From the NCBI GenBank assembly GCA_002256025.1, contig NKIB01013278.1:1-60711 (forward strand): a stretch of 60,711 bases of DNA. Direction: 5' to 3'. Numbering within the stretch: position 1 is the stretch's first letter; each line of letters opens with the position of its first letter. The notes under the pieces are model-generated. The model worked only from the letters and a program-made list of their open reading frames with translations. It ran no database searches and was not told where the DNA came from. The position numbers and the translations under genes are program-made. Shown here piece after piece: positions 5,661-28,537 of the stretch. This DNA comes from Asterionella formosa. Taxonomy: Eukaryota.

Positions 5661-6997
5661 GCACTCAACTACACATAACCCTATAGGGTTAGGATTACAT
5701 AGATTATATCAGAACTCTATCAGTAAAGAACTCAATTAACACCTGTTTTGAATTCTTTCGGCTGAAGTTTAGCTACCATGCCCGAAATACGAAGATCGAA
5801 TATTGCAATGCTATCACGGCAAAAGCTTCATATTCAGGAAATTTTTTGTCCGCCTTATGGTCCCGAAGATTAATAGTACGTCAACCATACGTCAAATGAC
5901 ATGATCTAGTGAATTGATATTATTTGCCACTACATGAAAATTGGTAGTCTTGTTCATAGGAATATTATAGTAATTAATTATAATGAAAATCGCTGTCACT
6001 TAAAGTTGCCATCATCTTCATTGCTGTTGTTGTAAGGTGATTTTATGGGATAGCTGCAATGGCGGTATCTGGGGCATGTGCTCAATCCCCTAATCTTTTA
6101 TTCACTTCACCTCTAATCGCTGATTCTATACAAGTCAAAGCCGTGGAGGGAAATTGCAAACTCGACATCTCAAGAAACAAGAGTGTCCTTCTTTCCAATG
6201 AATCCGAAACTCTGCAGAAACATTCGATTCTGCGAAAAACACTCATATGCGATGTTGATCAAGTGAATAGGAGGCTTTCAACAACTAATATGGAAGGTGA
6301 AAAGAATGCATACCTAGTATATCTCGATGAGCTAGCTACAGGTAGAACTACAAAAATGGAATAAAACAGCCAACTTTGGTTTTGATGGCTAATGTGAATT
6401 TGGTGGCTTCCGGTAACGAGAAACTTTTCCAGTCGACGGCATTCAAGACTCTATTTCCTTTGAGACAGAAAATTTCACTATCGGAACCATGGAACAAAGC
6501 GGCTTCTACAAAGCTAATGTCAATAAAAATACTGATGACGGTACTAACACAAGGCTTCATTACAAAGAGGAGAATGTACCACAAGCCAGAAATGATGATG
6601 AGATTACAAGTGACATAAGGAGGCAACGGAGAATCTCGTCTGACGTTGAGGTGGCCGTGGTGCCAAATATGCTTCCAGGTGGCTTAAAATTTGAAGGAAG
6701 GCTTGATGATGAAGTCGATATTGCAACAGTACCTTGCAGTGGTGGCGTCAAGAATGGAGAAATAGAAACATTTGCAATAAGAAATGGGAGATATCTATGG
6801 AAGCAATGACGATGCAGCGGATCAAACTTGTGTTTACAACAAGGACATTGATGGACCACCACCCACAAGGTGGAGACTGCACACACTGTTGATTATACGC
6901 CAAGAAGGTTGATGATAGTGGAGTTCTTGTCATGTTGCAAATTATTATCATTAAAATTTTTTTAAGTAATGATTATTATAATAATAGTATGTAATAA

Positions 6998-7343
6998 AGG
7001 GAATGGCATAGTGGTTTAGCATGTTGCCTTTGATCTGAGGTTGTGAGGTTCGATTCCCGCAATTGTTTTGAGAAGGAATTGTTGGGTTCGACTCCCACAC
7101 TCCTTACTGTCCCGCACGGTCTTGCCTGGTGTGCAAGAAATAGTGGGTTGTCCCTCCCCCCACCACAAGCAGCTTGTGCCGCCTTCCTAGGCGGTCGGAG
7201 TTTCCCCTAACGCTGCGGCTAAGACAATCACCTATGCTAACAAAACTAGGGAAGCACAGGTCTTGTCAGCAGGTAGCACAATGAAATACTTGCCTTGAAC
7301 AAGGGGAGTAGCTGCGAATGGGCTATAAAACATACTAACTTTT
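6998..7343 (+). mobile_element. tRNA-derived SINE, copy 1
   Basis: A box TGGCATAGTGG 7004-7014; B boxes GGTTCGATTCC 7047-7057 and GGTTCGACTCC 7085-7095; T-run 3' end. 16-bp TSD TAATAGTATGTAATAA at 6982-6997 and 7344-7359. Full-length homologue at 27117-27468 (-). Confidence 0.9.
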
Positions 7344-9148
7344 TAATAGTATGTAATAATAATGACAATAATAATACTTATAGAAGTATCGACTACTATA
7401 TCATCAGTGTATGAGATGATGATTATGTATATGAATCTCAAGTTTGAGAGACATATGAAGACCGAAACGTGATGTACCTGCACAGGCACATACGTTGACG
7501 CTGCTTGTCCTTTACGCGACTAGAACAATCCGGAAAACCTGCATACTACTATTACCTGTGCGCATTTCTATTACCGGTTTTATTAAGTTGTACATATGCC
7601 TACTAAATAGTCAGTACCAGCACCACTGGTATTTAAATTTCCTACGTAGCTTCATATAGTGGGTATGGTATGATACTGTCATGATGGATATACACCACTA
7701 CAGCATCTGGTTTTGTACAAATGTAGTAGGGGGACGATGAGACAGCAACTCCGTCTTGACCATGACGAAATTATTGGACTGAATATCTCCACCAATATTC
7801 ATGATGAACAATTCCTATTTCTCACACATATGTAGACTATCATAGACGAGGTATTTATTCAATAATAAAAATTTACACCAATATTGACAACATTAATGAA
7901 ATCGCCGCTAGAAACTGTTTTCGTCGTTGTTTGCTCAGGTTTGAGGTTTCGAACAAAAAAGAGACATTGTTGAGTTTGTGGCTAGCTTGATAACTTCTAT
8001 AAAATAATTATTTCTATCTTTTGTACAAATAGATGAGAAAAAGTGAGCAATAGAATTATCGGATAGAGCGCTGCAACAGCTCAAAATGCAAGAAATACCT
8101 TAACCACTTTTTTGTACTGACTTTCATGTATGTACCAGCAGGTAGTACTTCATGTCGTGTAGCATGTTCCTATGGAATCTTGATTAAGTCATTTCAAAGT
8201 TATGTCTATACATGGTACATATAGACATAGATCAATATGCTCCTTGTCCTTGCAGCAACTAAATATTTCGATGCTAAAATTTAAACACTAATTCCTCTGA
8301 CTGACAGTTTGTGCATTTTCAGTCACTTTTGTGCAAAAATTGTATTCTTTCCACAGATGTTGGAAGACAAAGGGGGAAGAAGGATTTGTTGGTTTGGCAC
8401 AGTAGTAGCAGCTGCAGATTGTGTGGGATCACATCACCCAAGGCATAGATGTTAGATGACAAGGAGGGCGGAAGGATGAAACAAAAAGAAGCACGGATGT
8501 TAGAAGAAATAAGTAAACCCCAGATGTGAAAATGTATGACAACCAGGAAGGATGACCCCATTCAACAATTACTACCAAACCAGGTACCAGTTTATAGGAG
8601 TACTTCTACCAGTACCTGGAAGGTGTGCCAGGTACTCTGAGTACCTTGCACAAACACTACGTATGAATTCTTTTACCGGTAGTCAGCAGCATGTCCGGGA
8701 CCTGGATTGGAATACTGTGACTTATAAAACAAATACAGGCATCCTAATCCTCAGAAATGAAGATATGTATACCGTACTCTTTACTTTAATAGCTATGTAC
8801 TCAGCCACGTAGAATAGATTTAGCCTATGTTTTATACCGAAATGACTGTTTTGGTACTATTAATGTTCAAATAAAGGTATACCTACATATGCTATTTAGC
8901 ATTGACACTATTACCAAATTAATATCAAACCAGCCATCAAGTTGAAGTTTACGAGGACTTTTTTATTTTATTTTTGACACCGGCACTTTTGTCCTTTCGT
9001 TCATCGTTGTCGCCCTGCTCTCTCGATACAACAAAGACATGCATGAATTATCTACCGGCTTAAATATTGAGAACGATACGAAGCAAGCAAGGCCTACGTG
9101 AGGACACAAAACATACTAACATCATAAGAACAGAAAACAGGTCAGTCC

Positions 9149-10548
9149 ATGATGAACGGATATACAACAGTCCTCCTATGGGTTTGCTGTATTGCCGCAC
9201 TCTCCTACTTGAACGTAGATGAGATTACCCCCAGGATCTACCGTCGAGAGTTGCAAAACGAAGGGATCATCGATCCCATGATTCAACGTGTGGTAAGTCG
9301 ACGATGCATGCAGAGCTCGTATCAAGGTACCGGTAGGAGGAGTCTGCTCACCAATGGGTTCTTGTTGTCCCCCAGGTCATCTCCGAGGATGGCGTTTGCC
9401 TCAACAAGCGGAAACATGCAAGTATTCACGATGAACGTCCTAATGTGAAGGAAGATTACGTCAAATGGTATGGGGGGCATTACAATTGGGATTATTACGA
9501 CGTGACGCTTCCACAGGTAAAACAACTACAAAATCCTAACTTGGTGGTCTGGGAAACATATGGAGCAAACACGAGCACGAGTTTGTGGGTCCCCAACAGC
9601 AACGACTTTGCCAAGGGACTTGGTTGGTACGCTCCTCCTGACCCTACCATCTCGCCGACCCGAACATTGGTTGGAAAATTTGGATTTTTCACCACATGGT
9701 TCACTGGACATTACGGACACTTCAACCACGACTACCTGCCGTCGTTGGCATACATAAGAAAGGTGACCATGTCTCGTTATGGTGATGACACAAGGTTCAT
9801 TCTAGTCGACTATCATCGCAACAAAGAACTTATAAAATTCATGGACCCTGCTTTTTACGAGCTTGTTGACTGGATTTCTATCGAGGAAGTCGTGAAAATC
9901 GAGGGCGAGGTCACCTACATCGAGCCTGTGGGCTTGCCTGAGATGGCTGGACACGCATTAATGGCGTATCTTCGTCAATGGATGATCGAAACTCATCCAT
10001 TCAATCAGGCAGATTTCGACGCAAATAAACATGTCCTTTATTACGATAGAGTTGGGTCAAGTGGTGTTATGCACGGACGCGTTTTGGATGCAGACCATCA
10101 GAAGAAAATCCTAGAAGCTATTCGAGCCGCTATGGACAGGCACGGACTGGGAGACCAAGAACTTGTTATCTTCAACGGACAAAAAGGGAATGGAGAACCA
10201 ATGTCGCCTGACGATCAGTTTCAAGCCTTTCGCCGTGCCAGCACATTGATTGGTCCCCATGGTACTGGATTAAGCAATATGGTTTGGACAAACCCCAATC
10301 CAAAAACTTGTGAATCTCGGACTCAGTTGCTTGAATTTGTTGTTGGTGCAGATGTAGCACAAGTGCAGTGCATCTACGGTGGTTACTATCGCCAATTTAG
10401 ATCACTTCCCTTGGATTATCACGAAATTTTCTATCAGATTCCTTCAACCAGCGAGACTACTTACATCAACATAGCTGAACTTGAGAATGCATTGAATGTC
10501 ATGTGGGGTGGGGACAAGAAGGTTCACATTGAGGCAGCAGTTCAATAA
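9149..10548 (+). CDS. Glycosyltransferase family 61-like type II membrane protein (2 exons)
   Basis: Exons 9149-9292 and 9376-10548 (GTAAGT...CCCCAG, in frame). N-terminal membrane anchor; YGHFNHD and QFQAFRRASTLIGPHGTGLSN resemble GT61 motifs. Confidence 0.8.
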
Positions 10549-11026
10549 TTTTGTGAAGCCACTCAGCATAATTACTTTTTTTAACATAGATGTGCATTTG
10601 ATTTAAATTCATACTGCGATTCGATTTCAAAATTTTAGGTACTTCTGTCTGTAAACTTGCCGAGGCACCTGTATTCGTTTAGCATGTTTAAACTTTTCGA
10701 TTTCTCTTCCAAAGCTCCACTACTATTTACATCAAGCTTACCGGTCCTTTTCGAGAGACAAGAAACTGTATTCCGAAATCGGAACTCCATACCCCTAATT
10801 AAAACTCAGCACTTTCGAGTTCGGCTACACTTACTGTCACAGCATGATTGACAGCATAATTGTCAATCTATCCACATGTCTCGATAAGAAGGCAGACAGC
10901 AAAATAAACAGAAAGGCGTGACATTCTTGGCAGTGAGGAACCAAGCGTAGGCAAGTGAGCGTCACTAGAGCTAGACTGACATTTACTCAGGATAATAAAT
11001 TTTGAGAAATTCCACAGGAGAGATAT

Positions 11027-12328
11027 CTAGTCATCGTCGTCCTCTTGGTTCCATAGATCAATCAAGTCCTCATCTGAATAGGTATCCTTAATTTCTTCCT
11101 CAAAGCGACTCGTCCCGTCAAACCAATGCTGCTTTGGTTTCGATGCTGCTGTAATTCCTTTTTCCTTTATACCTTCAAAGAGAGCAGCCCAATCAGATAC
11201 AGTAAGTCCTTCCTTTCGTTTGCGTACTTGCCACTCAAACCCTGGAATTCGTTCGAGTGCTTCGATACGTTTGTCTGTCAACAGCGTGGTTCTATTTTCC
11301 TGTCGGCAAGCGTAGCCATGACGTTGTTGATTGATCCAAATTCTTAAATCTTGATTGGAGAGGTCGGTTGTATTGAATTGAAGCGTATTGTGTTCTTTTT
11401 GGTATACTTTCAATCGTTCCAACATGGTGAACCATGAGAGTGTGTGAACGGACCATGTAAATTGAACTTGTTCTAATAAGGTGATGCGTTCAGGCGTCAG
11501 GGCGGTCCACAGACCTGCCAAGAATCGTTTATACCACATACGTTGATTCATGACCCACTGACCGAGAGGATAGTTGTCTTCGTAGTCTTCAGGAACGTTG
11601 GTGTGCCCGTACTGCTGGTGAAAAGCTTTAAGTTCATCGTATCGTCGGTCCCATCGTGCTTGTTGTGAGACATAGGTGTCCCAGAAGCCCAGATTCTTTA
11701 ATAACTGATACCGTTCTATAGTCAGACCGGTTGGTCGCCTGGCGAGAAAATGTCTATAATCTCTTCTCTGATTGCGGACCCAGAGCCCCAGCGTTGGATG
11801 GTCGATGGGTACATTGACATGTCCGAATAGCGACTTGAAATCGTTCAGTTCCTCCAATCTAGCTTGCCATGTGACGCTTTGCACGCTCCATACAAATCCC
11901 AGTTCGTTGAGTTGGTTTAATTTGTCTTGACGTAGCAGTGGTCGTCGTTGTCCCTTGGTGATGTTCAATGCTTGATGTCGATAATTGTATCGGACTGTTT
12001 TTGTCCACAGCGCCAAATCGAATTGCAGCGTCGGGTCTACGAGACAAGTCCCGTGTGTCGTTCTGTATTCCTTCAGTTGCTTGATTCGGTAATCAAACGT
12101 TCGACGTTGCCGAGTGGAAGGCTTTCTATTACTTCGTCGCTGTGACGACGAAGAAGAAGAAGATGATGATGACGATGATGATGATGATGGTTGATAAGCG
12201 AAGAGTATGAGAACTTGTTGTGTTCTGTGATGGCTCTGTTGGTGTCTATTCGACAGAACAAATGTCGACGTTGGTGGCAATATCAGTAGCAGCGCTACTA
12301 TTAGAACAACTCGAAACAGAATCATCAT
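11027..12328 (-). CDS. Helicase-associated (HA) repeat protein with possible plastid leader
   Basis: About four HA-type repeats (W..R..EL..F...GH.NVP...LG.WV.NQR...L..LGF.W). The likely start at 12328 (MMILF...TST-F) gives a signal peptide; the ORF is open up to 12415. Confidence 0.85.
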   Translation of the reverse strand: MMILFRVVLIVALLLILPPTSTFVLSNRHQQSHHRTQQVLILFAYQPSSSSSSSSSSSSSSSQRRSNRKPSTRQRRTFDYRIKQLKEYRTTHGTCLVDPTLQFDLALWTKTVRYNYRHQALNITKGQRRPLLRQDKLNQLNELGFVWSVQSVTWQARLEELNDFKSLFGHVNVPIDHPTLGLWVRNQRRDYRHFLARRPTGLTIERYQLLKNLGFWDTYVSQQARWDRRYDELKAFHQQYGHTNVPEDYEDNYPLGQWVMNQRMWYKRFLAGLWTALTPERITLLEQVQFTWSVHTLSWFTMLERLKVYQKEHNTLQFNTTDLSNQDLRIWINQQRHGYACRQENRTTLLTDKRIEALERIPGFEWQVRKRKEGLTVSDWAALFEGIKEKGITAASKPKQHWFDGTSRFEEEIKDTYSDEDLIDLWNQEDDDD

Positions 12329-12588
12329 CGATTCATGGTCAATAAAAGTCTTGTCTATCGCAGGGGTTGAGAGTGATGGTGAGCGACCCTGGCTTTGAAG
12401 GATTTTATTGGTCATGGCTGGCTGATGATGGCTGGCGCAAAAATTTACTCTGGAATATGATATATACAGGTAATATTAGTATTTTATTACCGGAAGTAAA
12501 AATGCTGATGACAGTCTATGTAGGGCACCAAATACAGTTGTTGCATCACTGATTCTTAGAATGGTGGTGGTCCTCCCATCATATCTTG

Positions 12589-13410
12589 TCATGTAATAGG
12601 AGCAACCAAAGGGTGCCGAAGTGGCACCATTACAGTTGCAACTGGTACTGCAGCATTGCCATGCATCATGGTGTCATAGTATCTGTTAAGTAGAAGTTGC
12701 TTCATTGTTGGTAATGGAAGATTGCAAGCTTGCTTGTACCATGTTGCCATTGTTTTCGTTTGCGCCACTATCCACTCTGCTGGCTCTTTTTTCAGTGTTC
12801 TGATTGCATAAACCTTGTTTGCAAGCACTGTGTGTGCATCTATTTTCTTATTCTCTTGCTCACTCTGCACTTCTTCTGTATACCTTTTCCTTTTTAGCTG
12901 GTCATTTACCACTTCAAGACCCAACAAGTACCTGCCTGCAGCGACATGAAGACCGGCTGTGTATCGTTTATTGCTTGCAATCGCCCTTAGTGCTGTATCT
13001 TTTTTGTTGGCAGGCAAGTTCATCCAGATTTATTCCATTTCTAGCAGCATCCTCAGGATTGCGATACTGTACAACCTGATCAATGAGGGTTCCAGTGATG
13101 CCTTGGCTCAAGTTTAGTCGGATAGGGGAATGAAAGAGACTGGTTGATTGTTGTTTGCTTCTGTTTGCAGATTCCAGGAACTTGTTAGTTGAATTTCTGG
13201 CTGGAGCAACAAGTTGTACCGGTAGTTCAATGGACCCCAACCTTGTTCAGCACCAGCTTTTTGGTTTGTAGTAATACAAGCAAAGGATGGATTCATCCCA
13301 AGCTTTCAACACAAGATCAACAATGTCATCCTTTTCAACAGCAAATGTAGCACGGCGCCTTTCCTTTTGGGTGAGTAACTCGTCCCTCTGCATTTCATTA
13401 GTGCCATTTT
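12589..13410 (-). mobile_element. Second decayed pogo-like transposase relic (C-terminal part)
   Basis: Frameshifted pieces align with 430-1200: GWGPLNY, LNLSQGITGTL vs LNLTDGYSGSL, RYTAGLHVAAG vs RITAGLHFAAG, WYKQ..LP.MKQLLLNRY vs WYKR..VP.TRQQLLQRY. Confidence 0.75.
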
Positions 13411-13825
13411 AAATAAGCAACACTACAGTCTAATTCAAAGAATTAGGCATCACCTGTTACTTTTTGGATGGTTGAGGCTGCTTTCTTGGTGTAGGTTTCA
13501 TCGTTGTTAAGGAGATGATCGCGATTTGCTTCATTTTGTGGTGTGCCGGACACAATTTCTGATATGCATTGCAGTCTCTGACATAAATATGGCGCGACTT
13601 TTTCCCATCAAGAAATATTGCATTCATTTACTTAGAGTGACTAATTGATTCATTTCTTTCTATATGTAGTAGTACATTGTCCGTGGCAGTTAAAATATGT
13701 TTGTGATTGATGGCCGTTCACTGATTCCCAACACTGCGACAACTCATCCTATTCTAAACATCACCACCAGTGAACACGCATCTCTCCCTCTTTCGTGAAG
13801 TACAACCACCTATCCTACAACAGAA

Positions 13826-15304
13826 ATGGACGCACATGAACTGCTATCCTCTTTTCAAGCTCTCAAAATCCCTAAAACTCACGCTTCTGTTGGCATCGCC
13901 AACCTTATCGCAAGCAACAATCAATACAAAACTCTCTTTGTCAATCGACGCCTTCCAGATCAGGGTTGGAGCGATGTGCAGATCCAATCTTTCATATTCA
14001 TGCTTGCCACACTAGACACCAACAACAAGGGAATGAATGGACGGTGGTGCGGTGTGGGGGAACGTGAAGGGCGAGTCTACTCCTCGCTGGTGGCTACTCG
14101 ACATTACGGCCTGTCGCATGGCATGGGCCGATCAGGGGACATTACAGAGCCACAGCCCAAGGCTCTGGGTTCGACTGTGCTTGTCAAATTGACGCTATTA
14201 CTAGTCATGGACGCCATACGACGAGCCACTGGACTCGACGCGAAAGGGCCAGCCAAACACGGGATATTGCTACCCCTGTGTACTGGCATGTCCATGGCGT
14301 TAGTACTTTCCACTCTCAGACAACAAGGTGATGGGTCAATTAAGAATGTGGTATTATGGAGTCGGATTGACCAAAAGTCATGTTACAAGGCCATTTTGAC
14401 AGCTGGCTTTAAGTGTGTAGTGGTGCCGACAGAACTGCAGGGGGACCAAGTGGTGACGGACATTTCCGCCATGGAGCGTCTCCTCCAACAATACGATGGC
14501 AAGGTCCTGGCTGTCATTACTACCACCTCCTGCTTTGCTCCTCGCGTTCCGGACCGAGTTGATTTTGTGGCCAAATTGTGCGCCGCTGCCAATGTGGCAC
14601 ATGTTATCAACCACGCCTACGGCTTGCAATGCGAAGCCACCTGTAAGTTACTCAATCGAGCCACAGTGGTGGGTAGAGTCGACGCCATTGTTTGTTCGAC
14701 GGATAAGAATTTCTTAGTACCCGTCGGTGGCGCGATTGTAATGTCGCCGAATGAAGGTATGATTACCAATCTGGGGAAAGTCTACGCGGGTCGAGCATCG
14801 TCAGCGCCAATTTTGGATTTATTCATTACGTTGTTATCCATGGGGATGCAAGGATATAAACGACTTTTGACAGAGAGAACAAATATGCTTGAGGAATTTG
14901 TTCCGAAACTGCAACAAGTTGCGACAAAATATGGAGAACGACTGATTGATTGTCCTGCCAATACAATATCCTTTGGAATCACTTTGGACCATCTCGTGAG
15001 ATCGAAGGGCATCGATGAGGACGAAGCTGTGTATCTCGAGTCAATTGGCGACGAAATTTCGTACTTTGGCGCCATGTTGTTTAATCGATGTGTCAGTGGA
15101 ACTCGAGTTATTCCACGAGCACAAACAAAAATAATGAGTGGCCAGGAATTCATTGGCTTTGGTAGCTCGACCGATCACTTTCCTCATGCTTACATGACAG
15201 TAGCATGTGCCATTGGTGTGACCAAATGTGAAACCGACGAGTTCTTTCGCCGATTGGACAAAGCCATGAAGGAATTTAGAAGCAAGCAACAAGGTCGGGG
15301 ATAA
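13826..15304 (+). CDS. SEPSECS: O-phosphoseryl-tRNA(Sec) selenium transferase
   Basis: Intact 492-aa ORF with GVGEREGRV, HGMGRSGDI, QPKA.GS, WSRIDQKSC, TTSCFAPR.PD and STDKNF (PLP lysine). Confidence 0.97.
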   Translation: MDAHELLSSFQALKIPKTHASVGIANLIASNNQYKTLFVNRRLPDQGWSDVQIQSFIFMLATLDTNNKGMNGRWCGVGEREGRVYSSLVATRHYGLSHGMGRSGDITEPQPKALGSTVLVKLTLLLVMDAIRRATGLDAKGPAKHGILLPLCTGMSMALVLSTLRQQGDGSIKNVVLWSRIDQKSCYKAILTAGFKCVVVPTELQGDQVVTDISAMERLLQQYDGKVLAVITTTSCFAPRVPDRVDFVAKLCAAANVAHVINHAYGLQCEATCKLLNRATVVGRVDAIVCSTDKNFLVPVGGAIVMSPNEGMITNLGKVYAGRASSAPILDLFITLLSMGMQGYKRLLTERTNMLEEFVPKLQQVATKYGERLIDCPANTISFGITLDHLVRSKGIDEDEAVYLESIGDEISYFGAMLFNRCVSGTRVIPRAQTKIMSGQEFIGFGSSTDHFPHAYMTVACAIGVTKCETDEFFRRLDKAMKEFRSKQQGRG

Positions 15305-15418
15305 TGTCGCAAGTCGCCGTCTTACACGCAATTCTAATTAATTTTTGCAAGGGCTGTAGACATGTGATCGACAATCATTCGCTTCATTAAAATTGTTGGC
15401 CTTCCGACCACTATTAAA

Positions 15419-16625
15419 TTATGCGGCTGCAATATCTACGGCTTCAGCAGTTTCAACGGCAAGAGCTTCGGTGTCTGATGCAGCCCGTTCGGTGGCCACA
15501 GTGGCAGCCAACTCAATAGCTGCAGCTTCAGCGGCGGCCAATTCAGCAGCAGCCAACTCAATAGCTGCAGCTTCGGCGGCGGCCAATTCTGCAGCTGCAG
15601 CTTCAGCAGCAGCCAACTCAATAGCTGCAGCTTCAGCGGCGGCCAATTCAGCTGCCGCAGCTTCAGCAGCCGCCAACTCAATAGCTGCAGCTTCAGCGGC
15701 GGCCAATTCTGCAGCCGCAGCTTCAGAAGCAGCCAACTCAATAGCTGCAGCCTCAGCGGCAGCCAATTCTGCAGCAGCAGCTTCAGCAGCCGCCAACTCA
15801 ATAGCTGCAGCTTCAGCGGCGGCCAATTCTGCAGCCGCAGCTTCAGAAGCAGCCAACTCAATAGCTGCAGCTTCGGCAGCGGCCAATTCTGCAGCCGCAG
15901 CTTCAGCAGCCGCCAACTCAATAGCTGCAGCTTCAGCGGCGGCCAATTCTGCAGCCGCAGCTTCAGCAGCAGCCAACTCAATAGCTGCAGCTTCAGCGGC
16001 AGCCAATTCTGCAGCAGCAGCTTCAGCAGCCGCCAACTCAATAGCGGCAGCCAATTCTGCAGCAGCGGCTTTGGCAGCAGAAGCCATCAAAATGCATGGT
16101 TAGAGAATGTAAAAGGTTGTGAAAAAACGATAAAACGGAAACAGGAACGACATCATAATAAATATATGTCAAGATCCTGTCATTTTGCGTACCTGCGGCT
16201 CTTGCTTCGGCAGCGATACGCTGTTCCTCCTTCATCGCGATGAAGGCAGCCTGCTTTGCCCTTTTCTTCGTAGCTGCAGCAGCGTCCAGAGTGTAATCCA
16301 CAGGTAAAGTCTTTCCGAAGATCTTAGCATGGGCGGACAGTTTCGTGAGCGTCTTTTTGCGCATTGTAACTCCTGCCTCGTTCATAAGGAACGGCTCAAT
16401 GGTTTTCACCATCTCGTCGAAAGTTTCGGCGGAAGCCTTCTTCATCATAACGTTGACTCTCCTCATAGACAATCCCGACGAAGAAGGAGCGACCTGGACT
16501 GCAATCTCGCCTTCATCCGCCATTTGAAGGCATTCGCGGTTGACCACGAAGGCGCGAGTCGCCGATGTGAATGCTCCTGTACTTCCGAGCAGAGTTGAGA
16601 AAGCGACTATTTTGATAACTTGCAT
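15419..16625 (-). CDS. Plastid-targeted protein with long Ala/Glu repeat tail (2 exons); paralogue of 19169-19837
   Basis: Exon 1 is 16625-16193 (leader STGA-F). Donor GTACGC, branch CTAAC, acceptor AAG at 16069 (an in-frame CAG 12 nt further on is also possible). Exon 2 (16068-15419) encodes AAAEAAA[A/I]EL repeats. Intron phase matches the paralogue. Confidence 0.8.
15506..16068. repeat. Coding minisatellite, 30-bp unit arranged as 60-bp dimers
   Basis: 16 consecutive decapeptide units alternate AAAEAAAAEL/AAAEAAAIEL (a few AASE variants), plus partial units. Confidence 0.95.
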
Positions 16626-19168
16626 ATTGATCCAAAGTTTTGCAGCAGAAAAAAGTGATAAGGTTCACTGATATGTTTGTATTGGTGGAAGTTGATTTTA
16701 CCCCTCCCGGTAAAATGTTTGCTGCCGTCAGTGATGCGTTGACGAATTTTCGTGGCGGCAGTCAGATTGGTCAAGTCAGCGTTGTCAACTCAGCGCTCGC
16801 TCAGGTGTGTCAAGGAAGGGGGCATCCTATCATGTAGCACGCTCCACACATTGTCTCTCCAATCTATCATTGTTTCGATTCAATGGATAATGCCGATTAT
16901 ATAGATATGTAGTGTATGAGTAAAATAAATTCTGTGGGAAGGCGGTGCATATCATCATCACATCGTTCTTGCCATTGGAATCTCCATTTGTGTCACAGGT
17001 TCCAAATAAGTGTATATTTCATTGTATCAGCACCAAGTACTGGGGGTACCCGGTGCTCGGAGTACCACCTTGCCAACCAGGTATTAGTCAGAATAAAATA
17101 TATTTTGAGGTATTGGTTTGTCATGGTTGTGGTCGACAACACCGTGAGTTTTCTTCTGGTTAAGCCTTACTGGTATACTGCTCCCGAAAATAACTCGACT
17201 CAAATTTCCTGTGGTATCTAATCATTAATTCCTATAATTTGTTACTATCATTTATCCTGTTTGTTAGGTCCTCACCAATGCTACCAAAAGCACCACCATT
17301 GTTGATCAGCTGATTGATTTAATGGTTTTCCAGTGTTATACTATGCTCAAGGGGTAATTCAATGGCCGATTTTTCCGAAAATTAGCAAGGAGTAATAGAA
17401 TTCTGGCACTGCCAGGAAGGGCTTTTTCCAAAGAATTTCTAACAACCCCCCAAAATGGAAATCCTTCACGGCACTAGGAAACAGCTTTTGAGTCACACTA
17501 CCATGTTAGAATTTCTCAGAAATTGAAAATTTTAGTAAATTTCCCGAATGCGATTTCCTGACCAATAAGCAAGGGCCTGAGAAGTGGCAGTTATCACCCT
17601 TTGATTTTTCTATGCACAATAACATTTTTGGAATTGTCAAAATTCCTTGGTGCATAACTGTCACATCTCCCACAAATGAGGTCTTACGCATGATAGATAA
17701 AGATAGAATATATCCATAAGTTGATCAATGGCTGTATCAAAGTTATGCAAATTGGTGGCATTGTTGAAAGCTAATATTAAGTTTAGCTATGTTTGGTAGT
17801 AGGAGGTGTAAACATTCTTGGGTTTGAAGTACATCATACAATGGTTTTGGTAAAATTCAGACCTCAAACTGCAAAGAGTAGGGGTACAACATGTATATCT
17901 ATATTATAAGCACTGATAGCTCTGTATTCACATGAAATACCAGTCCCTGCAAGAATATCTATCACTGGCATATCTGGTATTGTAGGAGGGTACCTGTTAC
18001 CCTAGTATGGTAGGCTACAGCTAACTTTAATATTATGGCTACTACTGTATTGCTTGTGTACTCTATGTACATGATATTCATACAGTTGAAATATATTTGA
18101 CAAATGCATACTGGAATATTACATAGAGTGATACAAAAATTTAATTATAATATTTTAAACTGTAAATCAGAAACAATGAAATGATACTAGCAATGTAATT
18201 GTAACCTGTGCAAAGAGGCCACAGAACTTTACCATGTCTTGGTTGATTGTTCCCCATCAAGTAGTGCATGCTGTAGATGTCCAATCTTTTCCAACTGGGA
18301 TGATACCAAAATTTATATCAAACACCCAGCCCCAAAACTTGCTTTAGCTTCTGACCAGTCCCAGTGATTGCATCTTCACTAGCTGTCACCCAGGACTGAG
18401 AGGGGCCTCATCCTTTGCCTTCTCCCACATTACACCACCACACATCCTGATGTTGAGTATGATGTAGGAAACTATGCTATATATAGTCACCAAACTGACA
18501 TTGGCCAAAAAGTCTAGTTGGTGCAAGCCACAACCTAAACCAAGAGAAATGCTTCTTTGATTTGGCTTTAGTAGGAGCCTCATTGACCAACTATCAAATA
18601 CCTGATATTTGGTCAACAAGGGAGCCATTGAAAGCCCAAAGCAAAAGCAAAAAATGATCTTGGTCAAAAAGGTGGCCAAAATATTTTTTGTTTTTTGACA
18701 AACATTATGCATCATGACATATAATAGGATGGACCAGTAAAGTCCATCCTGTTCTACCCACCAGATATTGGATTGATCAGAATCATGAAAAAAGCATTGG
18801 TTACACTCTGGTTGACACCTTGAGATAAAGTCAACTTAGGCAAAGTTTCCGGTGTACAAGACGAAATTGGGGCTGATCAGTTGTTGTTTCAGACTTCCTT
18901 CCAACAAGAATCGGCATGTCATTGCAGCGGTAGTGGCTACCACAGGGGCTATAATGTAGTAAATGGAAGCTACCAGTTCTGCCTAGGAATTACTGCGTTG
19001 TGCAATTGATCAATAAAGGCCGAAACAGGTTAAAAGTACTGAAATTGTCACATCCCTAGAATGTAGGTCCTCTTATAGTGGCCTTCTGATACATGTTAAT
19101 ACATCTACCAAAATGCAGAGAGTTCCTTCATCTCTGCCATCCCTTACTGTTTGCTCACTAGTTTTGGT

Positions 19169-19837
19169 TTACTCAGCAGCAGCTTCCACAACAGGAAGGA
19201 CTTCATCCTCCACAGGAGGGGCAGCTGCTGCCTCTGCCGCAGCGGCGGCTTCAGCAGCTAAATGAATACCGGTAGTTACGCAAAAAGCAGATATGACACG
19301 TTAGCCACATCATAGAACAACTCAGCATACAAAAGCAAAGGCACCCTTTATTGCACGTCGCAAATCAATTCACGTACCTGCAGCAGCAGCAGCCTCGGAG
19401 TCAGCAATGGCTTGGGCTTCAGCGGCAATGCGTGCTTCCTCTTTGGTAGCAATGAAGGCATCCTGCTTTGCGCTTCTCTTAGAGGTCGCAGCGGCACCGG
19501 TGGCATATCCGTCGGGCAAAGTCTTGCCGAAAAGCTTGGCCTTGGCAGTAAGTCTGCTGGTGGTTTTTTTTAGCATGGTAGTGCCAGCCTCGTCGATAAG
19601 AAAGGGCTCAATAGTCTTCACAATGTCGTCAAAAGTTTCAGCAGACGCATTCTTCATCATTCGGTGGACTGATTTCATGGTCAATCCAGACTTTGGTGGG
19701 GCCACCTCGACGGTGGCTTCTCCCGATTCAGTCATTTGCAAGCATGTCTTGGAAACACCGAACGCGCTGGGCGAGAAACTGAATGCAGAGGCTCGTCCGA
19801 GCAAGGCAAAGGAGGTGGCAATTAGATAAATACGCAT
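19169..19837 (-). CDS. Plastid-targeted ~182-aa protein (2 exons); paralogue of 15419-16625
   Basis: Leader GRASA-F. Exons 19837-19378 and 19257-19169 (GTACGT...TTTAG). Core ASAETFD..VKTIEPFL..EAG.TM.KKT is shared with the neighbour. Confidence 0.85.
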
Positions 19838-20575
19838 AGTATGGACAGGTTGATTTAAACAGTATACCTGGTTCCAGGTAATTGTTCTTCAGTAGTATAT
19901 GTGTGGCGACTGACGATACAAATAATAAGGAGCGAGTAAGGCGTTGATTGTTGATGTGTGGAGGAAAAACAGCCAAGCTCCAGAGGTCGTCAACTACCGG
20001 TACGGTGAACGTCCTCTCGGCGTGCGTCAAGAAGAAATCCAAAATCATGCTTATTACGATCTGCCATGATGTCATGCTCCTGGTACGTATGTCTGTCCGA
20101 TAGAGCTACGTCGAGCCGAAGCAAATATATTTACTGTCAATGTACAGAGCGTTCAATTTTTGTACGTACTCCTGCTGTGTGATTTAAAAAAAATACCGTA
20201 CGAGGCACCTGGTCCCGGGTTACGAGTTACTAACCTAGGAACAAATCCGGTATTGATAACTGTTATCATGTTCACTATGAATATTATGGTTGACAAAAGC
20301 TCGAAAATGAGAATAAGATGATGGCGTTCTTTCTTGTTATGAACCATTGCAGCCTTGACTAGGATCCACGACAATGCCCAATTTTGAACGCAGCATGAGA
20401 TTTCGAAAAAAAAACATTTGCAGTTAATCTCGTGAATTCAAACAATCCCTTAGTCGTCTGACTTCCTCGTACCTGGTAGTTAGTAGGTATAAGATACGTA
20501 TTATGGGTAATGACTTTTCAATTACCTGTACCCTGTTACCAGTATGCATGTACTGTACCTTGTACCAGTACCTGG

Positions 20576-20749
20576 TGTTTAGGGGAACCTTATCGTGAAT
20601 AAAGGTGAACTAGCTAGTACAATATTATGACTATTCTATTGCCGTTTTGAGTACATTGTTATTAGCGCTCACGCATGTACCTAATCTGGTGGTTACGCTG
20701 GTATGGTTCGTATGGCGCATGTACGGAGTACCATACTCAGATATTAACA
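20576..20749 (-). repeat. 3' LTR of the copia element
   Basis: Direct repeat of 25522-25697 with TG/CA ends, several substitutions and small indels. Confidence 0.95.
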
Positions 20750-23700
20750 CACCCTCACCAGCAGATTCAGGCAGAAGTTCAGGAGGAGAAAGTGGACAAC
20801 AAAACGCAGCATGGGTGGAGGTGGTAGCAGCATCAGAAGCCAAGCAACAAGCATAATAGTTAGGAGTAACAGGGAGGGATGGAGAGCAATGGAGATAGCA
20901 GGCGCATCAAAGTACGATGGGAACAAGCGGGGTGGTATTTAGTGAAATAATCGGCATGATTCAAACTGCCTTCAGTAAACAAGAAATTGGCCTTGGCGAA
21001 CCTGATCACGTACCCAGTAATAACGCATATCCATACTAGCTTTGGAGCATTTTAGTCGCACTGTATCATTAGAGATTACGCTGGCAGTGCTATTATCGGT
21101 GACAATATGGATAGAAAATTGCTGTTGAGCGCAATAACTAGGTGCATTCCAGGCATGGGGGGGGGGGGGGGGGGCAAATTGGGGGGGGGTGGGGTGGGTG
21201 GGGGTGAATCGTTGTAGAGCATGAACAATGTAGCAGGAATAGTGAGGTCAACGGTGTGGTGTTTGTAGTCCCACATCACATCAGCGTGAGGCCAATGCAA
21301 CCATGGGAGCCAGTCCAATCAGTGGTGAGACGGTATTTGGTGCGTAAAGTGGTGAAGAGACGTTCCACGTCACAACGTTTGGTGTAACGTACACCAAAGT
21401 CATCAACATCAAGCGAAAACATGAGATCACTGGTTGTATCCATCCATAGTAGGCCAGGAGTGACTGGGCAGGGGAGGTAATTTTGCGGGAGTAACAACTG
21501 GGCAAGTTGATCATTGGCAAGTTTACCAGCCTGAGGCAGCCCATACATGCCGCAGCGGATTTCGGCGTAGACGTGCCCATCAATGATTTTGGTAAATAAG
21601 TTGTAGAGGGTTTGGATGTGTGCGGGAATCATTGTTCATATAGGGATGCGCACATCTTCATAATCGGCGGGGGCAAGATGACTTTCGAGATAAAAATCAG
21701 ATAAATCCAGAGTCATGAAGCGGCCATTGGGGGTACTAATGGTGCTGTTAAACAAACATTTTGCAGTAGTGAGATCAGCAGTCTTGGTGCTGACATTACC
21801 AGTGTAAATCACATGATCACCCCCAGCGGTCCAACAAATGCGTTGGGGAATAGTTTTTCCAGGGCGATCGGCACACACAATGCGGATATAAGTGGCGCAT
21901 TTGTGTGTAAGCATGTTGTGTTTATGAATGAAAAAACAGCAATTAGTACCCGTTGGCATGGCGGAATGGGGTCCCAAGCCCTGAAATAACCGGCCAATTT
22001 CCAAGCCGTTGGCAGTGGCCCACAGGGGAGGAGTGCTGCAAGTCAATAATTCCTTATAGCCAGCAATTTTGCCATTGTCAGGGTTGATAGCGGTGCCATG
22101 GAAACAAAAATCAGTGACCATGGGAGTAGCACTGGTGAGAGGAGGGGCGGCGAGAGCAAAGTTGGCAAGCAAAGATGGGGTGTGGGGACTGTCAACATGA
22201 GGTGCAGCACGTTGTGTGTTTTTATAGCGACGGCGGCTCTTGGGCACAGTGGTATTTTCGTATGTGACCGTAAGGGAAGGTGGAGGAAGACTGGGCAGCA
22301 CAACAGCATCTCGATAGGAGCGAGGGGGTGTTGGAATGAGCGTGAGGCCACTGGCAGTAGGGGACTTAGGGTTAGGTGTAGGGTTAGGGTTGTAAGCAGG
22401 GTGAGCGAGGAATAGGGTTAGGTGTAGGGTTATCAACACTCGGGCCTCAACACTCGGGCCGGTAGGGTAAGGGTTAAGCACCCTCAATGGTTGGACATCG
22501 TTAGCAATGGCTGGAGGGACCGGGAGAGGTGTACGGGCATCAGGATCAGGGATAAGGTGGATGGTGGATGCTGTTGGTGTAGCTACTGGGCACCCTCAGT
22601 GATGGAACATGGCTACACAGTGGGGTGAGACCAGGAGGTGAGAGAAGTTCGAAGAGCTGGTGGAGAGCAGCTTTGTGGGTTGCTGCAGTGAGGGGGGCAA
22701 TGGGAGACCGAGTGGTTGGGTGTAACAAGGCATAGGCAATTTCCTGCAAACTGGTTGTGATGAGGTCAGTGCTGGAGGAATTACAAGGTAGGTGGACTTT
22801 GGTCGGAAACCACAAGACAGACAGTAACGCAGATGCGGATGGAACGTGTGTCCCACATCCAGATGCGATAGCAGGAATAGTAATCCACAGCAGGGCCAAC
22901 ATACCAGTCATCAAGAGCACGCAGAGCCCATGTTGTGCGGTGTTGTGGCTTGGCATGAACAAGGACCCGACAGCCTGGTGGAGCCAGGGGGACATGCTGG
23001 TTGTAATCATAAGTTCCATTGACCTGTTGTGCCCAAGTTTGGGGTTGAATCTAATAGTTGGTCCCACAAGTGTAGAGGAAAGTCTTTGTCGACACCGCAT
23101 AGGCCGGCAATAAAATGGTTTTGAAAAGAAGTGCGAATTGCACATGATTCAGCAGCATTGCGACGATGGAAAGCTGGAGGGACCAACTGAAAATCAATTG
23201 CTTTGGCATCCAAGAATTCTTTGAGGAGTGTAGAACACTCATTGTCCAGGCATTGAAGTTTGGGACGAAGGCCAGCTTTGCACAAGCTTTGGTGTAATTT
23301 TTCACAAGCAGCAAGGAGGCAGGAAGCGGTTCGGTTATGAAAAGGCTGAACGAAAATGTAATTGCTGCCATAATCATATAAGACCATAATGTAGTTGTTT
23401 CCAGTGCTGGAGGGGAGGATGAATTTGCCGGTTTGATCGGTGTAAATTTGGCCTGTGGGTGCAATAATGGACGCAAAGCACATGTTGGTATTGGTTGTCA
23501 GACCCTCAGGGTGGAAATCAGAATCACCCATGTTGTTAGGAGTGGACCAAAGTTCAGGCTTGATGATAGTGGGGGGGGGGGGCACACATGTGGACCGTAT
23601 GGTGTTTGATCGAGGTGGCCTTTGATGGTTGCGATGGAATGTGGGGGATGTTTGCGGAGTGTATCTAAAGTTAGACCTGGAAAATTGACAAGATACCCAT

Positions 23701-25521
23701 GGAGTAATGCTTTTTCCAAAGTACTAGAGATAACAGGAGAAAAGAGGGCCGCATGGGCAAAGGCGACAAGGGCTGGGGCAGTGGGACTGCCAATGGCAGT
23801 AGCAGCGTAGTGTGCTGGGGTACGCAGTGGTGGATCAATAGTGGCAGTGGTGACATGCCATAATTGAGTGGTGGTGGAGCGATGGTCCTGAAGGATGTAA
23901 TGACCATTGGACATGACAGACATGTGCGTTTTTTTGAAAAGGACCTCGTAGCTGGAGTCACATAATTGTCCAATGCTCAAAAATGAACAATTGTGCAGGC
24001 CAGGGAAAAATGTGCACATGTCGAGCAGCGGGTAAAAGCATAAAAGCATAGGTAAATTCAACTCAGCCTCGTGTGTGGATGCAACATGGTGACCGTTAGG
24101 AAGTTGAATAGTGATAGGGTTGGTGGTAGGTCATGTGTTGATGACAGGTAAATCAACAGTGGCGTAATTGCCAGAACTACCAGAATCAGCGGTGAGTGTG
24201 ATGGGGGGGACAAGTGAGGATGGAAGTCAAGATAAGGTTGTGTTAATAGTATTATCACCAGCAACTTGCTCCCCTCCACATCAAGCATGTGTTGAAGGTG
24301 TCAGTGAAACATGGGGAGCGAGTATGGGTACCATCATTGAAAATACGAACACTGCCACCCATACTACGTCGATCAAGGGTGGCAGTGATTTGAGGGCCAG
24401 AAGATGGATGATTGCAAGTGGCACTGGTATGTTCAGGGTGTTTGGTGAGACCATGAGTCCAGCAATAACCTAATTGGACATTGTTGTAAATATACCCAGG
24501 AAGGACAGCATGAGCAGTGGCAGCAATCCCTGGCAGTGGGGGAGTTTCACTGGTAATGGCAGCATGGGCACCATGATAACCAGCGGTGGTGGCGGTGGCA
24601 AGGCGCAAACGTTCCTTATCGGCATGCATGAAATGAGGGCAAAAATAAACCCATGTACAGTCCATCTTGGCGCTATCACGCCAAGTTTGAATATTATGGG
24701 AATAAACACCAGCCTGTTCCAAAGCAGACAGAGTCAACCACATGACAGTACTGTCAGATAAAGTCTCCCCACCAGCATCGGCAATGGCACAAAGATGTTT
24801 GATGCGGACCCATAAATTTTCAAAAGGTTCATCTGGTGTCCATGCATCAGCCAAGCGCATGCGATTAAATTCTAAATCATCTGCACTCAAAGTTGCATAT
24901 GTAGAATCTAAGTGAGCAAGCAAGGCCACAACAGTGATGTCAGCATACCCAAAGGTATCATCTTCCAGAACGTTGTAGTAAGTAGGTTAAATGGCTGTTA
25001 GAATTTGTTGTCGGAGAATTTCGCGGATTTGGGATTAACGGCGGAATGCATCAAGGGAGGTGTCAAAGAGACGGTTGGCAGCTGTGATTTGTGACTGTGT
25101 AGCAGTTGCACTGTGCAGCGGCTGGGTGCTAGGATGTTCGGGCGGTAAAATGGTTCACCAGCGCGTAAGAGATAAGGAGCAGCAGCCATGACAATACCAA
25201 GAAAACCATTGGCACCACCACCACCACTGGTACAGTGGACAGAGCAAGCGTTGACGAAGATTTCCTTGCAAAGGCGGGTTATTGTGAGGGCTGTAGGTTT
25301 GCCCTCGATCGGCGTCAAGAGCGGATGAGGGAATGGAAAAACGGCAGAAACGAGTGGAGTCGTCATTGTGAAAGAAGGCCCGAGAGACAGCAGGGTAAGC
25401 AAACAGGCAGTCGGTGTTACACAGTCGTGTGTAAAAAAAGTGCTGACTTGCACCACCGACAAGAGCCGCAATGTCACCACCACAGGTGCGGACCAGGGAG
25501 AGAGAACTAATATTGTAGTTC

Positions 25522-25697
25522 TGTTGAGGGGAACCTTATCGTGAATAAAGGTGAACTTCAATATTATGACTATTCTATTGCTGTTTTGAGTACATTGTTG
25601 TTAGCTCTCACGCATGAACATAATCTGGTGGTTACGCCGGTACCGGTATGGTTGTTCAAATGGCGCATGTACGGAGTACCATACTCAGATATTAGCA
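25522..25697 (-). repeat. 5' LTR of the copia element
   Basis: Direct repeat of 20576-20749, upstream of gag on the minus strand. Confidence 0.95.
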
Positions 25698-27116
25698 CCT
25701 GGTACTCTGTACCACATAACACCATAGCTACTACCAGGTAGTCAGAGCTCCGAATCAACAAAGCAGAAGAAATAAATGAACCATAATTGTCGGCCGCAGT
25801 ATGAAATTGACATCTATGGTGTGCCACCAAAAATTGGACAATACGTACTAAGTTTTGGTTGGCTACTAACCAAAATCCGCTTTTCCGCCAATCATCATTG
25901 GTATTTTTGCTTTAATGATACTGTACATGATATTACCGGCATTTTGTTGCTTTGTTGTATGCAACATGCATGTACCTGTGCAAGTTGCGGTAATTGTGCT
26001 GAAACTAAATACTTAAGCTATCTTTATCCTGAATTAAATTGTTTATTTAAGCCAGATGACCTTGCTCTGGTACCTGGTGCTGTACCTGGTACTCCAGCAC
26101 CTTGAAATCGAAAGCCAGAAAAAAAGATCATTGCTTTGATGCATTGCAAATAAATGCATGCCAGCAACTACCGGTACCGGTAATGGTACAAGCAACCAAA
26201 TAAACTTTTTTCCTGGAAGGTCTGGTAGGGCACAGTCTCTGCGCACCTTTCAGATTCGACGCACTCCCAATAGATTGTCTCATGCCTGCCAGACAAGATG
26301 GGCTGGCCATTCATTCCAAAATCTCTCAAGTTCCTTGTGTCAATTTTAAATTATCATCCGTTAAATCCAATTGGTGTTCTAATCATCGAAATTGTGCTCA
26401 CCTACTATTTCCGGTACTGATAATGGTACAGTATTCAGCACCTGGATGACGATTTGCTATTGGAATTCACCAATCAATAACTTCCAGTCATTGTCAGCAG
26501 TTTCTAGTCATAGTCATCTGATTTCAAGTCGCATGTACCAGTAGTCGCCAAATGGGACAGCAATCATAAACAACAAATAGTCACTTTGAAAATGTCAATT
26601 GACTATTAATAGGCATTGCTTAAATAGAGAATCAAACAAAATTTGGTCCAACCTACAGGCTATCATAGTGTAGAATGTTGCATAACGTGAAAGTGTCAAA
26701 TCTGTTCATAACTTCGTCATTTTGAATTGTGCATCATCTAAACTACCGGTAGTATGTCAGGCAATGCGCCATTGGCGGCTTCATTTTTCGTTGTCAATAT
26801 ATTGCTATTACATTTATTTTTCAAGATTTTATTATCTTTATTGTGTTATATGTATTTACCAAATATCATACTAGCATCGTTTTCATTTGCCATGGAGAAA
26901 TTGGTTATTTTCGACATGGTCAAGGCAGAGATGGCATGATGCAGGATTCTCCAGCCGCACACAAGAACTACACTATAGCATTTTGTATACAGAAAGAAAT
27001 CGCAATTTATAAGCTAAACAATTATATATTAGTGTCTTTAGCCTTGGGGACAGTATCCATTGACATACCGGTACCCTGAAAATGAAAATATATATCATAT
27101 GTAGCAATAGTATACA

Positions 27117-27468
27117 AAATTTTTATACGTTTTATAGCCCACTCGTACTCCCCTCTTTCAAGGCAAGTATTTCATTGTGCTACATGCCGACAAGACATGT
27201 GCTTCCCTAGTTTTGTTAGCGTAGGTGATTCCCCAACCAACTTTTGCGAAAGAGAAGCGGCGTTAGTGAAAACTCCGACCGCCTAGGAAGGCGGCACAAG
27301 CTGCTTGTAGGGAGGCAACCCACTATTTCTTGCACACCAGGCAAGATTGTGCAGGACGGTAAGGAGTGTGGGAGTCAAACCCAAGAATTGCTTCTCAAAA
27401 TAATTGCGAGAATCAAATCTCACAACCTCAGATCAAAGGCAACGTGCTAAACCACTAAGCCACTCCCA
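27117..27468 (-). mobile_element. tRNA-derived SINE, copy 2
   Basis: Reverse complement aligns end to end with 6998-7343. A box TGGCTTAGTGG; B boxes decayed by transitions. 14-bp TSD AGCAATAGTATACA at 27103-27116 and 27469-27482. Confidence 0.9.
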
Positions 27469-27757
27469 AGCAATAGTATACAGTATACTGGTATGTGATA
27501 AATGATATGAATGATATTGCAAATACGGTACCTGGTACCACCAGGTAGTATATTGGTATCCCCGATAGGCTGTTGCATCTGGATGATAATGACTTGGAAC
27601 GTGTATATAGATGTGACGTTACATATTCATATATGTAGTATTATTGACAAGGCTATCAGGGGGCGGTATTGGTTGTGTTCATTCATGTATATACTTCAAA
27701 GGCATTAGGGCCATTCACAAAATCTATTCTTATTTGCAAGTTCTACCTGTAGTCGTT

Positions 27758-27897
27758 GTCAGCAAAGTCTAGTTGCTGTCAACAAGTTCTATTTGTATTC
27801 AGCAAGTTCTATTCATAGTTAGCAGTTTCTAGTCATAGTCAGCAGATTCTAGTTGTAGTCAGCAGTTTCTAATGATTGTCAGCCAGTTCTAAACATA
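27758..27897. repeat. Degenerate 20-bp tandem repeat (7 units)
   Basis: Consensus ~GTCAGCAGTTTCTAGT(T/C)(G/A)TA at an exact 20-bp period. A related unit lies at 26493-26512. Confidence 0.85.
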
Positions 27898-28537
27898 AAA
27901 AGGTAGGATTCCTATGTTGATTCCAAATTTAGAAGATGGTTTGCTGATACCATTCATCAATCAGGAAATTCTGAGTCATGTTCAGGGACTGATTCTGCAA
28001 ATTGTCATCAGGAAATAAGAGTAATGTTTTCCTAAAAAACTTAATGAATATTATTTTCATCGAAAGCTGGCCTATCTTGTCCAGCAGGCATGAGAGGATC
28101 CATTGGGAGTGCAACAAAACTGAAATGTACACATAGTACATGCACTGCCAGACCTTCCCGGAATGCATGGCTGTAGTTTTACCAGTAGTCATGCAATTGT
28201 AATTGAATACCGGTTAAGTTATTTCTGGTACTCCGTTTTGTTCTTTATGATTAACTTTGCTGAGGGGTGAGCCCAGTATTTTAGCAATTTGGCAACAACT
28301 TTAATTAACTATTGAAACCAGCCACAACGTAATACATTCTACTCTGATGGAGGGAATGCTGTGCGCACTACTGGTTGGGTTGTTGCATATACCTTCTCGA
28401 TTCCTACCCGTACATTGTTAGGATGCAAGCGAATTGATTCATCAATTGCACTGGTGCTAGCAAGGAGAAAATTATGAATGAAAACTGAACAATACAATTG
28501 CATCAGCTTTCCTTAAATCGAACACTTTATGTTGCGC

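Follow-up and report, generated by a model that had tools for sequence, protein, structure and literature searches.

Two copies of a probable tRNA-type short interspersed element family in a contig of probable diatom origin

Position, boundaries and anatomy of the two copies

Contig NKIB01013278.1 was analyzed over positions 1 to 60,711, and this whole stretch of 60,711 nt is referred to below as the window. It carries two copies of an element of about 350 nt, copy 1 on the plus strand and copy 2 on the minus strand. Each copy is enclosed by its own target-site duplication (TSD) and headed by promoter boxes of the type used by RNA polymerase III (Pol III). The copies are very probably two old, independent insertions of one tRNA-type short interspersed element (SINE) family in a diatom nuclear genome. 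The boxes were compared with the A-box and B-box consensus strings TRGCNNAGTGG and GGTTCGANNCC. The features are:

6982..6997, plus strand: 5' TSD of copy 1, TAATAGTATGTAATAA; exact 16-nt repeat of 7344-7359
6999..7343, plus strand: SINE copy 1, 345 nt; end-to-end alignment with copy 2
7004..7014, plus strand: A box of copy 1, TGGCATAGTGG; fits TRGCNNAGTGG
7047..7057, plus strand: B box 1 of copy 1, GGTTCGATTCC; exact to the B-box consensus
7085..7095, plus strand: B box 2 of copy 1, GGTTCGACTCC; exact to the B-box consensus; within a 21-nt internal duplication
7340..7343, plus strand: 3' T run of copy 1, a Pol III terminator-like tail; read directly
7344..7359, plus strand: 3' TSD of copy 1; exact repeat of 6982-6997
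27103..27116, minus strand: 3' TSD of copy 2; exact repeat of 27469-27482
27117..27467, minus strand: SINE copy 2, 351 nt; end-to-end alignment with copy 1
27371..27381, minus strand: B box 2 of copy 2, GGTTTGACTCC; one C>T
27409..27419, minus strand: B box 1 of copy 2, GATTTGATTCT; decayed, one C>T
27452..27462, minus strand: A box of copy 2, TGGCTTAGTGG
27469..27482, minus strand: 5' TSD of copy 2, TGTATACTATTGCT as read on this strand; repeated exactly over 14 nt at 27103-27116

The ends were read from the sequence. Copy 1 begins with GGGAATGG... at 6999 and ends with ...CTTTT at 7343; copy 2, read on the minus strand, begins with GGGAGTGG at 27467 and ends with AATTT at 27117, giving 3' tails of TTTT and TTT respectively. 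A single surplus base lies at the 5' junction of each copy, A (6998) in copy 1 and T (27468) in copy 2. The copies were aligned by BLASTN with 83.6% identity over 353 columns with gaps counted (E 3e-107), and 290 of the 323 ungapped columns were identical. Of the 33 ungapped mismatches, 23 were transitions, with 10 at CpG sites, and 10 were transversions. The commonest changes in family contigs aligned from public runs (below) were C>T and G>A. This excess of transitions, the CpG changes and the C>T/G>A bias are as expected for old, methylated repeats. Members of the family differ from one another by indels of 7-30 nt in the body. The GC content of the copies was 0.47-0.50, compared with 0.35-0.38 in the 200-nt flanks. 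No third copy was found by BLASTN within the window.

In both copies a single nucleotide separates TSD and homology on the 5' side and none on the 3' side, and the first TSD base is T (n = 2). As a control, a 345-bp gap was placed at 5000 random window positions and shared words were sought anywhere in the 40-nt flanks; a shared word of at least 14 nt was obtained in 4 of the 5000 placements. Since the repeats are perfect, of unequal length and placed exactly at the boundaries of homology, they are not attributed to chance. TSD lengths were readable for these two complete copies only.

The A box, TGGC[A/T]TAGTGG, starts at element position 6 in both copies, and the B boxes start at element positions 49 and 87. 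In copy 1 the start of B box 1 is 43 nt past that of the A box, and the distance between the A box and B box 1 (positions 6 and 49) corresponds to the spacing in tRNA genes. A composite pattern of A box, 25-45 nt gap and relaxed B box was matched at two sites in the window, both within the copies, and in 0 of 100 shuffles. The presence of two B boxes results from a T-arm-like duplication of 21 nt in copy 1 (7041-7061 and 7079-7099, 81% identical, 38 nt apart). An initial annotation of the window had described two full copies homologous over ~350 bp, an A box followed by a B box in both, a short T run at both 3' ends and a separate TSD of 16 or 14 bp for each. Reading, alignment and the two controls bore out all of these.

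The window was searched with Rfam, and nothing was detected at gathering thresholds. Under permissive settings the sole structured match on either copy was the tRNA clade RF01852, with 16.5 and 20.0 bits and E 1.6 and 0.18 (gathering score 47), and the ~240-nt body gave no match in either copy. The RF01852 alignment pairs positions 1-7 with ~100-106 in the manner of an acceptor stem, and the same closing stem is present in the minimum-energy fold of the copy 2 head. As judged from its sequence, the head has a promoter of the tRNA-gene type and a partial tRNA-like architecture.

Coding capacity was low. One frame of at least 70 aa overlaps copy 1 (76 aa, 6976-7206, minus strand, stop-to-stop) and one stop-to-stop frame of 73 aa lies inside copy 2 (27229-27450, plus strand); these two frames were left out of the Pfam scan. 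Terminal inverted repeats were sought and none was found, the inverted-repeat scan round copy 1 giving AT-rich flank matches only.

Repetition and dispersal in public sequence data

Logan contigs of three DNA runs, each belonging to a different study (X1, X4 and X6), and of one metatranscriptome (X17) were aligned to positions 6700-7650 at 80% likeness or above. The DNA runs gave:

X1: 12624 contigs; summed depth 492,541-2,026,814 over 7020-7307 and 1,709-4,594 over the left flank, 6700-6859
X4: 1819 contigs; summed depth 26,731-87,344 over 7020-7307 and 248-536 over the left flank, 6700-6859
X6: 994 contigs; summed depth 951-4,547 over 7020-7307 and 13.5-21.1 over the left flank, 6700-6859

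The bin-median depth of the element exceeded that of the flank ~150- to 500-fold, and the excess began in the 6988-7019 bin in all three DNA runs. Summed contig depth is not copy number and other organisms may contribute to it, so only repetition of the order of 10^2-10^3 is claimed, for each of the three runs. Contigs departing from the element at 6998 numbered 28 (X1), 36 (X4) and 22 (X6), and they continued into AT-rich sequence without consensus (agreement 0.44, 0.42 and 0.45). Many members therefore share the start base of copy 1 but occupy different places. The high-copy family proposed in the initial annotation was supported in all three DNA runs, by the depth excess and by dispersed 5' junctions. 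Further dispersed copies were present as 22-36 contigs per run with unrelated 5' flanks, and TSDs were read in two copies.

Candidates for the empty site of copy 1 were obtained as one X1 contig (depth 1180; single-copy contigs 750-990) and one X6 contig, both joining 6951 to 7357. Between the two sides lie 32 AT-rich letters which by eye partly resemble 6964-6981. The shorter anchor at these joints is 21-22 nt and such joints are flagged as unreliable; the contigs give a hint of another haplotype, or of a relative, without the insertion.

The flanks of copy 1 were also deeper in X1, with 22-37 thousand over 6860-6923 and 59-120 thousand over 7340-7435 compared with ~2-4 thousand nearby, and in one contig 6912 is joined to 7383. 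These data suggest a further repeat of lower copy number, or AT-rich low-complexity matches, around the copy 1 insertion. No clear terminal repeats of such a repeat were found there.

Other assemblies were searched with two patterns from the element. The 32-nt head pattern gave no matches in JGI metagenome contigs; the 20-nt body pattern gave four loci in the same contigs, and two of the four were true family members. One of these, L002, covers element positions 35-345 at 84-88% identity. The other, L001, covers the last ~180 nt of the element at 73-78% identity, the contig start cutting off the rest. The remaining loci, L003 and L004, were rejected as chance matches that have only a word of 20-27 nt in common with the element. 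The body pattern also gave one chance match each in prokaryote genomes (L005, in a bacterial chromosome) and in viral contigs (L006), and these were likewise rejected. L004 and L006 are one contig of 35,430 bp, which occurs among the JGI metagenome contigs as well as among the viral contigs of IMG/VR.

A protein search was carried out with the minus-strand translation of copy 1 (6976-7206). Both of the candidates returned, on ENA and JGI contigs of 6.6 and 18.6 kb, align over the head (72% and 68% identity) and diverge exactly at the 5' end of the element, which identifies them as two more copies with different flanks. Together with L001 and L002, four further copies were obtained from other assemblies.

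Structural variants were compared among the copies and the family contigs. Copy 2 holds a hairpin segment, TTTCGCAAAAG...GGGGA, as do most family contigs, and is without ~16 nt (GGCTAAGAC...) found in copy 1, L001 and L002. Copy 1 is deleted at 7228-7233, where most family contigs hold an extra hairpin-forming segment, TTCGCGAAAGGTGGTTGGGGAC..., that is kept in copy 2 and L002. Relative to most family contigs it also has small insertions at ~7151 and ~7311. At several head positions copy 2 has the majority base and copy 1 differs from most family contigs.

Proposed mobility and competing explanations

SINEs are defined by SINEBase, in the text available from PMC3531059, as short (<700 bp), non-autonomous elements with an internal Pol III promoter that are retroposed with the help of a partner long interspersed element (LINE). 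The two copies are 345 and 351 nt long, hold short frames only and carry an A box and two B boxes internally. Signs of retroposition are the 16- and 14-bp TSDs, the unrelated 5' flanks and the further copies with different flanks. We therefore consider it highly probable that the element represents a family of tRNA-type SINEs which a LINE has dispersed.

A full member is ~360 nt long, with a ~107-nt head, a ~240-nt body containing several short hairpins and a tail of 3-4 T. The head has one A box and, through the doubling of the T-arm-like segment, two B boxes, and its ends can pair like an acceptor stem. From this anatomy the following route of transcription and reverse transcription is proposed. 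Transcription by Pol III would start at the internal A and B boxes and halt at the element's own T run. The endonuclease/reverse transcriptase encoded by a LINE would then nick AT-rich target DNA, and the U-ended RNA would be copied at the nick by target-primed reverse transcription. A staggered second nick would produce a duplication of 14-16 bp beginning with T. TSDs that begin with T directly after the T run would be expected if the U tail paired with A residues of the bottom strand at the nick.

Plant Au-like SINEs end in TTT or TTTTT, have TSDs with T as first base and are moved by LINEs of the RTE clade, according to the accessible text of PMC6007223. Both copies here likewise close with a T run and have TSDs that open with T (n = 2). 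RTE-like elements are the retrotransposons without long terminal repeats (LTRs) that have been reported from T. pseudonana and P. tricornutum (PMC2806351, available text). On the strength of the T tail, the T-first TSDs and these reports from model diatoms, an RTE-clade LINE is our best guess for the partner, though a tentative one held at rather less than even confidence.

Several observations count against this interpretation, in whole or in part, as does the limit on contig depth given above. With ARAGORN, no tRNA was detected in the copies at the default and 90% thresholds, and at lower thresholds the calls were of conflicting isotypes (Ala, Pro, Gly, Ile and Gln) according to threshold and copy. 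The case for tRNA descent of the head is carried by the promoter boxes and a model match under the threshold, and two decayed copies do not allow a parent tRNA to be named. The tRNA-derived head of the initial annotation accordingly stood as regards its promoter boxes and a weak covariance-model match; its parent tRNA could not be named. An A-rich or poly(A) tail is absent from both copies. No TSD was found for L002, whose flanks share words of 4-6 nt at most and which starts at position 35; it may be truncated at the 5' end, a frequent outcome of target-primed reverse transcription, or lie on a chimeric contig.

As regards an RTE partner, the nearest T stretch upstream of the TSD start lies at 20-26 nt in copy 1 and 18-20 nt in copy 2, compared with ~10 nt in Au-like SINEs (PMC6007223, available text), a weak comparison at n = 2. 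The TSDs of 14 and 16 bp fall at the top of, or beyond, the 7-15 bp given there for the RTE majority, most often 10-12 bp, and are inside the L1 range. No reverse transcriptase or endonuclease domain was present in the 55 window open reading frames scanned (14 + 41), and no partner LINE was seen in the window. The X17 RNA data were uninformative: 16 contigs were aligned, a few of them on the element, at a depth of 3-4 and on both strands, and a fraction of 0.86 of the aligned contigs continued into unlike sequence. This pattern fits SINE copies inside longer transcripts or DNA carry-over and has no bearing on Pol III. An 18-nt loose end of an RNA contig next to 6876 was sought in the window, with a location of copy 1 in an intron in mind, and gave no matches at up to two mismatches.

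The ARAGORN calls were compared with those on 200 shuffles, which gave 0 calls at 85%, 4 at 80% and 53 at 70% with introns. At the loosest setting a tRNA-Gln with a 24-nt intron was drawn for both copies. It was rejected, as the 200 shuffles also yielded 53 calls at this setting and other thresholds gave other isotypes. Removal in silico of either unit of the 38-nt internal repeat still gave no tRNA call at the default and 90% thresholds.

Three other origins were weighed. Retropseudogenes derived from one master cellular gene, a functional gene for a Pol III non-coding RNA, would take the place of a selfish SINE family and would account for a head that folds with a closed acceptor-like stem. 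They would also be in keeping with the RNA as a whole, for which folding was a little more stable than in shuffles (z -1.9 to -2.7, with whole-element folds at -1.9 and -2.4), a difference that was not used as evidence. Against this stand the lack of any Rfam family at gathering score, the body indels between the copies and a level of repetition far above that usual for such copies; in practice the definition of a SINE would still apply to them. This origin is regarded as very unlikely. The copies could also be pieces of a longer element, either a 5'-truncated LINE tail or a solo LTR, instead of a free-standing SINE. The origin of the body is not identified and L002 begins at position 35, as such a piece might. 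LINE tails have ragged 5' ends and solo LTRs have TSDs of 4-6 bp. Both window copies, however, begin at the same base with a Pol III promoter, and 22-36 contigs per run break at this same 5' base in all three DNA runs. A longer parent element is thus very improbable.

The element also resembles a miniature inverted-repeat transposable element (MITE), a non-autonomous DNA transposon that would carry a tRNA-like stretch by chance, in being short, non-coding, highly repeated and located in AT-rich DNA. Cut-and-paste families have TSDs of one fixed short length. The TSDs here are long and unequal (16 and 14 bp), and the ends, GGGA... and ...TTTT, form no terminal inverted repeats. The lack of terminal inverted repeats and the variable TSD length rule out a cut-and-paste element, and a MITE-like origin is given next to no weight. 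The preferred explanation is that of a SINE family with a tRNA-type head.

Host, neighbouring features and relation to known SINEs

The window encodes a kinesin, SepSecS, a protein with four helicase-associated (HA) repeats, a gamma-glutamyltranspeptidase, a class I aldolase and an SSRP1/HMG protein. Among the 120 best matches of the aldolase, all named relatives were diatoms, with 74-77% identity (Grammatophora, Nitzschia, Seminavis, Epithemia and Chaetoceros). Public runs containing the stretch are labelled as algae, freshwater or lake-water metagenomes. These data support a diatom host, as the initial annotation had supposed, and more specifically a freshwater diatom.

SepSecS (O-phosphoseryl-tRNA(Sec) selenium transferase) occupies an uninterrupted frame at 13799-15304 (E 6.6e-114), which indicates that the alga has selenocysteine machinery; the weak tRNA-Sec model match on the SINE head is unrelated to this gene. 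The four HA (PF03457) domain repeats are encoded at 11027-12475 on the minus strand. The HA-domain family is much expanded in diatoms. A tandem array with a 15/30-nt period at 15407-16140 is open in several frames on both strands, and one of its frames matches the pentapeptide-repeat family (E 1.6e-10). A direct repeat of ~175 nt (20576-20750 and 25522-25698, 85% identical, 4.95 kb apart) encloses minus-strand open frames (21279-25911) without a Pfam match. Its units may represent either a duplicated exon or the terminal repeats of an LTR-type element that is degenerate and non-autonomous. SINE copy 2 is bracketed by a 94-nt inverted repeat (26210-26303 and 28070-28163, 78%), and 20-nt tandem repeats lie on both sides of it (26474-26523 and 27759-27888). 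Copy 2 may have been inserted within an older foldback-like repeat.

SINEs are known across eukaryotes, other stramenopiles included, and diatom mobilomes have been described as dominated by copia-type LTR elements. The element belongs to the tRNA-type SINEs, in a lineage whose SINEs have hardly been characterised, and does not represent a new mechanism. For P. tricornutum, 13 'putative SINE' with 1,454 bp were described as the first in a diatom (PMC5859163); SINEs were recorded in the second C. cryptica assembly (PMC7466962). According to PMC8147415, reports of SINEs from other diatoms were confined to C. cryptica and S. costatum, and for Pleurosigma a SINE class was plotted (PMC12803021). 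These annotations have the host group and the repeat class label in common with the family here. They differ in that the classes are software-assigned, and the main texts, as far as available, describe neither an anatomy of head, body and tail nor TSDs or a parent RNA. The set from P. tricornutum (PMC5859163, available text) is moreover tiny, compared with ~10^2-10^3-fold repetition here. Outside supplementary tables, the literature search returned no diatom SINE described by head, body, tail and TSDs in the texts available. The earlier view that SINEs are barely described in diatoms is upheld to that extent, the accessible literature giving only classes from automated annotation.

Compared by description with other groups, the family is closest in form to plant Au-like SINEs. 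The available text of PMC6007223 gives these a tRNA-type head, an internal promoter, a short T-run end, a T-first TSD and hundreds to thousands of copies. The element here is more than twice as long and has a stramenopile host, and it differs from them in TSD length and in the distance of the upstream T stretch, as given above. Among stramenopiles, the oomycete Phytophthora infestans has infSINE families with expression ascribed to an internal Pol III promoter. By description, one of these, infSINEm, has 32 copies, much fewer than the family here (PMC3429519, available text). Quasidimeric SINEs, as outlined in PMC3531059, also have an internal duplication. The duplication here is the 21-nt T-arm-like segment repeated 38 nt downstream; it is short and confined to the head and does not form a large part of the element.

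The family is probably undescribed. It is possible, though we would not put it at even odds, that it is the first anatomically defined diatom SINE family: undescribed, T-tailed, of RTE type, with a duplicated B box, present in ~10^2-10^3 copies and possibly still segregating. A defined family provides a concrete consensus for diatom genome annotators to mask and offers markers for strain or haplotype typing in a common lake diatom. It also points to active or recently active LINE machinery, perhaps RTE-like, in the lineage. The signature of a T tail with a T-first TSD, known from plants and animals, would thereby extend to stramenopiles.

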